Part shown: one piece after another, positions 31,876 through 33,095 of the stretch | Numbering within the stretch: position 1 is the stretch's first letter | Layout of the letters: every line of letters starts with the position of its first letter | Virus record (IMG/VR): IMGVR_UViG_3300013581_000001 | Strand: one strand, 5' to 3' | Length of the DNA stretch: 42,492 nt | DNA from: a virus | Notes under the pieces: model-generated | What the model was told of the DNA's origin: nothing | The model's database searches: none | Seen by the model: only the letters and a program-made list of their open reading frames with translations | Program-made: the position numbers and the translations under genes

Positions 31876-33036
31876 TTAGCGTGCAATATATCCCAGACGT
31901 TTCAATAGCCCCTCTATTTTCCATTTGGTTAATCCAACATTTCGACTGATATATGTAAGGTTTCTACCATTCTTGTATAGTTTAATTATTTCATCCACAT
32001 CTTTTATTTGCTCTAATTCTTTTATTCTTTTTATTATATTTTCTTTGTCATATAATTTTAGTACATGTTTCAATTCAGTTTTATTAATGTTATTCATTAT
32101 AAAGTTGTAATCAGATAAACTGCAATCCACTTCAACATATTTTATGTTTTTCTTTTTGCAATAACTCATTTTTACAACATCAGATTCCTTAGATTTTCTA
32201 TACCAAATTTCGTTTTCTTTATAATGTTGCTTTCCATGGGTTTCTATAACTAAATTATATTCTGGTAAGTAAAAATCAAATCTTTTGGGTTTAAGATCTT
32301 GGAATATTTTTTGATATTCAAAAACTACACTATTTTCATTTAATAAAGCAATCATTAATTTTTCTGGATATGATATGTTAGTAGAACATACGTGGCAAAA
32401 GAAACCTTGTTGGACCAAGTTATTAACAGGCGTTGTTTTTTCAGTTTTACAATTAGGGCAAACGCAATTTATTTCTCTCCTTGAGAACTTTGTATATTTT
32501 TTTGCATCATTAACATCTTTTAAAAAAGGTAAAACATTTTTTTCGTTGTATAACCAATTTCCTTCATAAACATATTTACCGCTAATGTATGGACTTGGCG
32601 CACCGACATCTATTCTTGATTCTCTTCTATAAAATGTCAAGTTTGTATTTAGACACAACATTTTATATTCTCTTTCTTTACTTCTTGGATTAAGTCTTTT
32701 ACCAATTACTTTACAACCATTTATAATAAATCCTAAATTATGTTTATAACCATCAGTCACAATTTTCTTTATTTCGCAATTTTTGAAGTTAGATGAACGT
32801 ATTTCATATGTTTCGTTTTTTACTTCCACTTTTAAATATCTTTCATCATTTTTCCTGTAAGAGTCTAATATTTTTATATCTCCACTGATACCTTCAAAAA
32901 AATAATTCACATTATAACCTATGGAATTTTTCCAAATAATTTGTTCGCCTCTTTTTGTTTTCTTCCTTGGTAGCCCACTTAAATTTATCCAATTTTTACC
33001 TTTGTGAAATGTAAAATTATTATTTATTATTTTCAT
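31876..33036 (-). CDS. AT-rich moron gene (386 aa). Multidomain putative DNA-binding/nuclease protein: N-terminal domain of unknown function, CxxC...CxxC zinc ribbon, DUF559/Vsr-like PD-(D/E)xK-type segment, C-terminal HTH
   Basis: ATG start at 33036 preferred over the track's GTG at 33045. Zinc ribbon CVCPNCKTEK...CHVC. Nuclease-like segment RFDFYLPEYNLVIETHGKQHY. C-terminal ..GRNLTYISRNVGLTKWKIEGLLKRLGY. Noticeably lower GC than its neighbours. It sits at the classic lysin-attR moron position. Confidence 0.5.
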   Translation of the reverse strand: MKIINNNFTFHKGKNWINLSGLPRKKTKRGEQIIWKNSIGYNVNYFFEGISGDIKILDSYRKNDERYLKVEVKNETYEIRSSNFKNCEIKKIVTDGYKHNLGFIINGCKVIGKRLNPRSKEREYKMLCLNTNLTFYRRESRIDVGAPSPYISGKYVYEGNWLYNEKNVLPFLKDVNDAKKYTKFSRREINCVCPNCKTEKTTPVNNLVQQGFFCHVCSTNISYPEKLMIALLNENSVVFEYQKIFQDLKPKRFDFYLPEYNLVIETHGKQHYKENEIWYRKSKESDVVKMSYCKKKNIKYVEVDCSLSDYNFIMNNINKTELKHVLKLYDKENIIKRIKELEQIKDVDEIIKLYKNGRNLTYISRNVGLTKWKIEGLLKRLGYIAR

Positions 33037-33051
33037 ATTAATCACCTTGTG

Positions 33052-33063
33052 GTAAGTATACCA
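33052..33063 (-). promoter_or_regulatory. Extended -10 promoter TGgTATACT for the moron gene, immediately downstream of the lysin terminator
   Basis: On the minus strand: ...CGCTTTTTTACATAAAAAGTGGTATACTTACCACAAGGTGATTAATATG. TG sits 1 nt before TATACT, and an AAGGTGA ribosome-binding site follows. Confidence 0.4.
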
Positions 33064-33071
33064 CTTTTTAT

Positions 33072-33095
33072 GTAAAAAAGCGGGTTCCCCCGCTT
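33072..33095 (-). terminator. Rho-independent terminator after the endolysin gene (stem AAGCGGG/CCCGCTT, 4-nt loop, U6)
   Basis: A 7-bp GC-rich stem followed by TTTTTT on the minus strand, 8 nt after the endolysin stop. Confidence 0.6.

Follow-up and report, generated by a model that had tools for sequence, protein, structure and literature searches.

The Seg (GIY-YIG) and Mob (HNH) proteins of bacteriophage T4 are free-standing homing endonucleases. Their genes lie beside conserved phage genes, have their own promoter, are present in some genomes and absent from others, and spread with co-conversion of flanking markers. Another catalytic fold is found in I-Bth0305I, an active and intron-encoded enzyme (Taylor et al. 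2011, PMC3239194; PDB 3r3p), and in Vsr of E. coli (PDB 1cw0), a stand-alone mismatch-specific nicking enzyme which is recruited by MutL. The composite EDxHD motif comprises E25, D51, x, H69 and D97 of Vsr, where x is H64 in Vsr and N208 in I-Bth0305I, and a further acidic residue is conserved in the EDxHD family at the position of Vsr F62 (PMC3239194). Here we analyze a 386-aa open reading frame (ORF) in a DNA stretch of 42,492 nucleotides (IMG/VR record IMGVR_UViG_3300013581_000001, in the following the window), a segment of complete genome size that belongs to a temperate siphophage of Staphylococcus epidermidis (Rockefellervirus/CNPH82 group). With a probability of roughly 70% this gene codes for a free-standing homing endonuclease, having a catalytic domain of the Vsr/I-Bth0305I (EDxHD) fold and forming a self-contained cassette which is inserted where the endolysin gene ends, shortly before the end of the prophage.

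The late operon on the minus strand closes with the holin gene and then the endolysin gene (34485..33103, minus; TGA stop codon at 33105..33103). The ORF follows between the endolysin gene and the attP/integrase module, that is, in the moron-like slot where the earlier reading of the letters alone (the sequence-only reading) had placed it. The same gene is cn31 of phage CNPH82, and phages 27, 456 and 459 have been reported to carry "the same putative endonuclease gene" after their lysis genes (mSphere 2021), where it is annotated as endonuclease. An alternative in-frame GTG at position 33045 would extend the protein to 389 aa. We take the ATG at 33036 as the start codon because the ribosome-binding site AAGGTGA fits this ATG; cn31 is annotated likewise. 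With the T4 enzymes the family shares the intergenic insertion, a predicted promoter of its own and the presence/absence pattern, and its flanking divergence is compatible with co-conversion. The catalytic fold is another one, and the copy studied here belongs to a temperate phage, where it sits at the end of the prophage.

We aligned Vsr of E. coli K-12 with hhalign to the profile of the family. The segment EKLMIALL...RFDFYLPEYNLVIETHG aligns with EKRLASLL...RPDFVVDEYRCVIFTHG of Vsr (E = 3.9e-5, probability 70.6%), so that E225 is equivalent to E25, D254 to D51 (RPDF), the indispensable Mg2+ ligand of Vsr, E265 to F62 and H267 to H64. Across 24 homologues with sequence identities down to 25% the residues E225, D254, E265, H271, D286 and K289 never vary, and H267 is retained in at least 90% of them; the single exception, P0020, has an asparagine at this position like I-Bth0305I. 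The composite EDxHD motif is thus recognizable, with H271 and D286 placed by spacing, and the acidic residue of the EDxHD family is present as the invariant glutamate E265 where Vsr has F62. The catalytic domain has the Vsr-like variant of the PD-(D/E)xK fold, and its predicted active site, of the Vsr/EDxHD type, is intact. The sequence-only reading had seen a replaced catalytic aspartate in the segment IETHG and had considered a variant which only binds DNA. This was a mis-registration: VIETHG aligns with VIFTHG of Vsr, and the aspartate D254 is invariant.

The remaining part of the protein is modular. From the N-terminus we find two small barrels, a zinc ribbon, the nuclease and a helix-turn-helix (HTH) domain (Table 1). 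Zinc ribbon, Vsr/DUF559-like nuclease and HTH had already been proposed, and our domain analysis agrees with this set. C193, C196 and C217 of the ribbon are invariant in 24–25 homologues, and matches to DUF4379 are present in homologues. The N-terminal barrel module is optional in the family, as a 308-aa allele (see below) and several homologues from myoviruses do not have it. Many homologues contain in addition a NUMOD1/I-HmuI-like module after the HTH domain which is absent from the 386-aa protein; in these homologues NUMOD1 and I-HmuI-NUMOD modules exceed the Pfam cut-offs.

For the 386-aa protein itself Pfam and NCBIfam gave nothing above the cut-offs. DUF559 (PF04480) was not listed by the Pfam search even at E ≤ 10 and DUF2726 stayed below its cut-off (E = 0.03, 14.5 bits versus 24.7 bits). 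The protein, like Vsr, has a histidine where DUF559 has an aspartate. Searches of the PDB sequences with phmmer and hmmsearch returned matches for the HTH/NUMOD parts and none for the nuclease part. Among the phage protein families, the protein falls into phrog_4538 (7e-150), and the annotated PHROG matches are a "homing endonuclease" (PHROG 9084, 1e-34), an "HNH endonuclease" (2e-24) and an "intron encoded nuclease" (PHROG 7140, 1e-15). Its neighbors in BFVD carry names such as homing endonuclease, VSR endonuclease and group I intron protein, and some database relatives are called restriction enzyme.

The family differs from the described enzymes in several respects. I-Bth0305I is linked to the 386-aa protein only by the fold and the Vsr-type residues. 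Its NUMOD/HTH part is N-terminal and its nuclease C-terminal, whereas here the order is reversed with barrels, zinc ribbon, nuclease and HTH. In contrast to I-Bth0305I, members of the family have the zinc ribbon immediately N-terminal to the nuclease and, optionally, the SH3-like module at the N-terminus, and the 386-aa protein is free-standing and not intron-encoded. HTH and barrel parts are absent from E. coli Vsr, in which the zinc site is part of the nuclease domain.

The settings in which the homologues occur argue for mobility. A 453-aa full-length homologue with 32% identity (P0015) is encoded inside a group I intron of a Staphylococcus haemolyticus prophage (locus L010, 4719–7810; Rfam RF00028, 53.6 bits with the gathering threshold at 50; E = 3.8e-12). 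This intron splits the CHAP domain of an endolysin between ...WDFDGSYG and QCFDLAN..., just before the catalytic cysteine. In the phage Stau2 the homologue is an insertion between the portal and the prohead-protease genes. The sister phages KSAP7, StAP1, Romulus and SPJ2, which are 97–99.9% identical in the matched flanks, do not have about 1.18 kb at this place, and Rfam detects no intron at the Stau2 locus. By tblastn we found 482 matching places in 296 phage records with up to five per genome. Most of these records are strictly lytic staphylococcal myoviruses, and some of the genes are already labeled as homing or VSR endonucleases. In a profile search the number of cluster representatives was about 45,000 for E ≤ 1e-3 and about 4,000 for E ≤ 1e-30. 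Finally, a 66% identical orthologue at a prophage end in the chromosome of Staphylococcus nepalensis (locus L016, 5001–6160) is frameshifted after about residue 290. It is possible that this copy is in decay, as in the decay cycle of homing endonucleases, or that the frameshift is a sequencing error.

A separate observation concerns the structural region of Stau2. Here we noticed two IS605 OrfB/TnpB-like genes (locus L005, 3723–5970 and 12047–13255). The first is located directly upstream of an ORF whose similarity to portal proteins is confined to their C-terminal half, so that the portal gene may have been interrupted, an IStron-like element being one possible cause.

At the locus itself the cassette is polymorphic. 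In phages that share the same endolysin either of two alleles is present, L (386 aa) or S (308 aa), which are 37% identical. In allele S the N-terminal barrels are missing and the tail is NUMOD-like. Allele L is found in the window and in CNPH82, CNPx, 456, 27, 459 and IME1348_01. Allele S is found by annotation and translation in IPLA7, E72 and PH15, and PG-2021_90, PG-2021_93 and HOB 14.1.R1 are assigned to it by the length of the slot alone. In BE01, phage 48 and BE21, whose amidase is divergent, the post-lysin sequence abuts the end of the amidase gene; for BE01 only, the absence of any gene at this place is confirmed by annotation. The swap between L and S has sharp shared boundaries at 33056/33057 and 31837/31838. 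Together with the intron residence of P0015 and the Stau2 insertion, the two alleles or an empty place at the lysin end show the presence/absence pattern at fixed sites.

Downstream of the gene a short relic of a lysin end is preserved. The segment 31766–31851 of the window aligned by blastn reaches 17 nt into the amidase coding sequence of BE01. These 17 nt (AAATACACTGGAAATGA) correspond in BE01 to AAATAGACTGGAAATGA, coding for ...IDWK-stop. The hairpin AGGGTAG-N9-CTACCCT follows in the window with a degraded T-run. The same element stands directly 3′ of the lysin gene in BE01 (locus L002), which carries no insert, and in L010, and similar elements come after the homologous gene in L016 and L017. 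Lysin relic and the lysin terminator of insert-free phages both being downstream of the gene, the insertion point is placed at the extreme 3′ end of the endolysin gene. Rfam detects neither an intron nor another RNA family across the whole window, and we therefore regard this copy as free-standing. A transposon-like element was also considered. It is unlikely, since a repeat search around the cassette revealed no terminal inverted repeats and no target-site duplication.

Sequence divergence is concentrated next to the cassette. When the window is compared with IPLA7, 18 of the 19 differences on the lysin side are in 33064–33220, within 165 nt of the cassette, and a single one is in the 1,780 nt of 33221–35000. 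Between IPLA7 and E72 on the other hand, which share allele S, no difference is seen over the allele (927/927 nt), over the spacer or over some 200 nt at the 3′ end of the lysin gene, whereas their whole amidase genes are only 95.5% identical. Such a tract linked to the cassette resembles co-conversion, and it predicts the last 100–200 nt of the endolysin gene as the region of cleavage.

We infer the cleavage activity of the 386-aa protein, its target site and the timing of its promoter from sequence comparisons, and suggest the following steps for the spread of the gene. The SH3-like barrels, the zinc ribbon and the C-terminal HTH would recognize a long site in related phages without allele L, probably in or beside the last 100–200 nt of the endolysin gene. 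Cleavage of this target would be the task of the Vsr-like domain, where D254 and D286 could bind Mg2+ and H271 could act as general base. Finally, recombinational repair from the genome carrying the endonuclease gene would copy the cassette together with a short flanking stretch of the lysin gene into the cut genome.

Table 1. Features of the endonuclease cassette and of the adjoining attP/integrase module in the window.
Feature	Position	Strand	Basis or remark
386-aa ORF, putative free-standing Vsr-like (EDxHD-class) homing endonuclease	31876..33036	minus	between endolysin and attP/integrase module
N-terminal module, two small SH3/Tudor-like beta-barrels (aa 1–145)	32602..33036	minus	presumed DNA recognition
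Four-cysteine zinc ribbon (C193, C196, C217, C220), treble-clef/DUF4379-like	32371..32481	minus	conservation and weak Zn_ribbon_NUD match
Vsr-like nuclease domain (aa 223–320) with E225, D254, E265, H267, H271, D286, K289	32077..32370	minus	
C-terminal three-helix HTH (aa 331–386), sigma region 4/resolvase HTH-like	31879..32046	minus	
Ribosome-binding site AAGGTGA	33042..33048	minus	read from sequence; 5 nt before ATG
Extended -10 element TGGTATACT	33055..33063	minus	read from sequence; 18 nt upstream of ATG; no recognizable -35; predicted promoter
Rho-independent terminator-like hairpin AAGCGGGGGAACCCGCTT and T-run	33078..33095	minus	terminator scan; directly after endolysin stop, 5′ edge of cassette
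Cassette-linked flank, terminator and last ~117 nt of endolysin gene	33057..33220	minus	co-conversion-like tract; predicted cleavage neighborhood
17-nt remnant of endolysin 3′ end	31835..31851	minus	downstream of endonuclease gene; blastn versus BE01
Hairpin AGGGTAG-N9-CTACCCT	31784..31806	minus	3′ of endonuclease gene; T-run degraded
attP region of tyrosine-integrase module	31426..31647	.	repeats, terminator scan, blastn module boundary; attP role inferred; not part of cassette
Arm-type repeats: TATTTGACAC three times (31427, 31578, 31589) and a 27-nt pair (31493–31519, 31543–31569)	within 31427–31603		
Terminator hairpin	31638..31616		within attP region; terminator scan
Tyrosine integrase	30376..31425	plus	other side of 386-aa ORF, divergently oriented

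The gene appears to be a transcription unit of its own. As had been noted from the letters, the endolysin gene is followed by a terminator hairpin and then by the extended -10 element TGGTATACT; the terminator scan recovers the hairpin and the element is read from the sequence. A generic -35/-10 scan did not list TGGTATACT because a -35 element is absent. We find, however, the same order in homologous cassettes. An equivalent hairpin is also found before the homologous genes of IPLA7, L004, L006, L016 and L017. At the same relative position as TGGTATACT there is TGGTATAAT in allele S of IPLA7, in L006 and in L017, TGATATAAT in L010, TGATATAGT in L004 and TGCTATAAT in L016, and the ribosome-binding site is kept as AAGGTGA or GAGGTG. 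The common layout thus consists of the hairpin, TGnTATAAT 26–37 nt before the start codon, about 10 nt, an AAGGTGA-type ribosome-binding site and ATG. Cassettes with a protein identity of only 32–80% have it: allele S, the 66–80% orthologues L004, L016 and L017, the 39% homologue L006 and even the intron of L010. In our view this conservation exceeds chance expectation and is good comparative support for a predicted autonomous sigma-A promoter. It is therefore plausible that the gene is expressed in the lysogen.

A small palindrome, GTGGTA-TACT-TACCAC (33049–33064), surrounds the -10 element, and the scan listed it as a terminator-like hairpin of the plus strand. The palindrome is not conserved in allele S and could be a protein-binding site or due to chance.

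A gene with these properties might also serve the prophage. With its own sigma-A promoter active in the lysogen, the endonuclease would cut related superinfecting phages at a sensitive site, for example the lysin 3′ end, so that the lysogen is protected or the resident prophage favored. The biochemistry would be the same as for homing, and only the beneficiary and the time of action would differ. The position at the prophage end and an autonomous unit with its own terminator, extended -10 element and downstream hairpin, all present in the sequence and independent of the late operon, are what one would expect for such an exclusion function. The promoter layout is conserved across the cassettes, the orthologues hold their post-lysin position in different siphophages, and many prophages have an intact ORF with conserved catalytic residues. 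We nevertheless regard this explanation as unlikely. Defence families contribute only a weak and partial PADLOC match to mREase_II (E = 1.8e-4), which covers 88 residues of the shared nuclease fold, and a match to DpdF (E = 0.012), and none of the neighbors at the locus, that is, the endolysin gene and the attP/integrase module, is defence-like. Strictly lytic myoviruses are the main carriers of the family, and a group I intron also harbors a member; in such settings a role in the protection of lysogens cannot apply. Furthermore the copy in S. nepalensis is frameshifted, and the literature searched yielded no transcriptome or phenotype data for the lysogen.

A special form of this idea is that L and S are rival "marker-exclusion" weapons, whereby the endonuclease made by the lysogen cuts the lysin 3′ region of superinfecting relatives with the other allele or an empty site. 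We think that this is rather doubtful. If true, the two alleles would decide which S. epidermidis phages coexist, and a selfish gene would double as a prophage-encoded immunity. Of the two functions between which the sequence-only reading had hesitated, the single-gene anti-phage or abortive-infection nuclease finds nothing specific in its favor, whereas the atypical free-standing homing endonuclease is favored by the PHROG families, the NUMOD modules, the homologue in the intron, the polymorphisms and the abundance in lytic phages.

Several points weigh against a homing endonuclease acting at the lysin end. The hhalign probability is moderate, and H271 and D286 lie beyond the end of the alignment, so that they are matched to H69 and D97 of Vsr by position and spacing only. 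Profiles of the family run against all PDB sequences did not retrieve I-Bth0305I (3r3p) at E ≤ 10. Orthologues with 39–80% identity follow the endolysin gene in several siphophages with different endolysin types, and this position would be accounted for just as well by a permissive or useful "moron slot" as by a target in or near the lysin 3′ end. The gradients in the flanks come from two comparisons, and any recombination with a nearby breakpoint could yield them. In the phage collection there is no phage combining this lysin allele with an empty slot, so that the insertion is deduced from the more divergent lysin of BE01. Finally, the literature searched holds no data on cleavage, homing or expression for the protein or close relatives.

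A role in the DNA metabolism of the phage itself, without mobility, we regard as very improbable. The Vsr-like fold and residues and the database name "restriction enzyme" of some relatives would suit mismatch nicking as by Vsr, recombination or the degradation of host DNA. However, the gene is dispensable, since BE01 has no such gene here and other phages have the shorter allele with 37% identity. It is located outside the replication module, its homologues are intron-borne or insertions, and it binds DNA, as far as predicted, through sequence-specific modules of a type common in homing enzymes. A catalytically dead derivative acting as a regulator through DNA binding is hardly credible: the HTH and the other putative DNA-binding modules and the departure from the ExDG consensus of DUF559, as given in the sequence-only reading, would suit it, but IETHG corresponds to IFTHG of Vsr, every catalytic residue of Vsr has a counterpart which varies little or not at all among homologues down to 25% identity, and at the position of H267 the active I-Bth0305I has an asparagine.

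A free-standing homing endonuclease as the most probable function corrects the annotation of a gene which is labeled "conserved phage protein", "hypothetical protein" or "endonuclease" in CNPH82, CNPx and related S. epidermidis model phages; CNPH82 and CNPx are laboratory phages. It also strikes a tempting candidate off the list of defence genes and assigns it to a common kind of phage gene. The Vsr-like family to which the protein belongs is very large and has an unusual domain order, and we found neither a characterized member nor biochemical work on it in the literature searched. Modular nucleases of this kind with long sites might have some value as scaffolds for genome engineering.

The base composition of the gene deserves a comment. 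The ORF has a GC content of 26.5% as compared to 34.6% for the whole window. It is the stretch of 1.16 kb with the lowest GC content, and only 0.24% of the windows of equal length are as low (mean 34.5%, standard deviation 2.6), so that the low GC content relative to the neighbors, which had been remarked before, is real. At third codon positions, however, the GC content is 20.4% and thus nearly that of the endolysin gene (20.8%). The deficit therefore sits in the codon positions 1 and 2 of a gene coding for a protein rich in K, N, I and Y. As the third positions equal those of the endolysin gene, we discarded the low GC content as evidence for a foreign origin or a foreign codon usage.

Beyond the cassette the window is a mosaic. 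The tyrosine-integrase/attP module (30301–31647) matches BE01 and S-CoN phages with 98.6% identity. The block of endonuclease and lysis genes (31610–34790) matches the CNPH82-type phages with 99.7% identity, and these phages use a serine recombinase. Both homologies overlap at 31610–31647, across the terminator hairpin of the attP region.

Two further genes of the window attracted our attention. The gene for the tail-associated cell-wall hydrolase is annotated as two joined pieces in PH15 (L013, 6346–8430) and E72 (L014, 6500–6589), which suggests an intervening sequence; the corresponding 631-aa ORF of the window (35897–37792) is continuous and has no intron according to Rfam. Between the gene of a LexA/CI-like repressor and the integrase gene there is an ORF of 322 aa (29348–30316, plus strand). 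The protein has a lipoprotein-like signal (…LSCFLVLAAC) and a C-terminal half of low complexity and is a candidate for an accessory gene expressed by the prophage.

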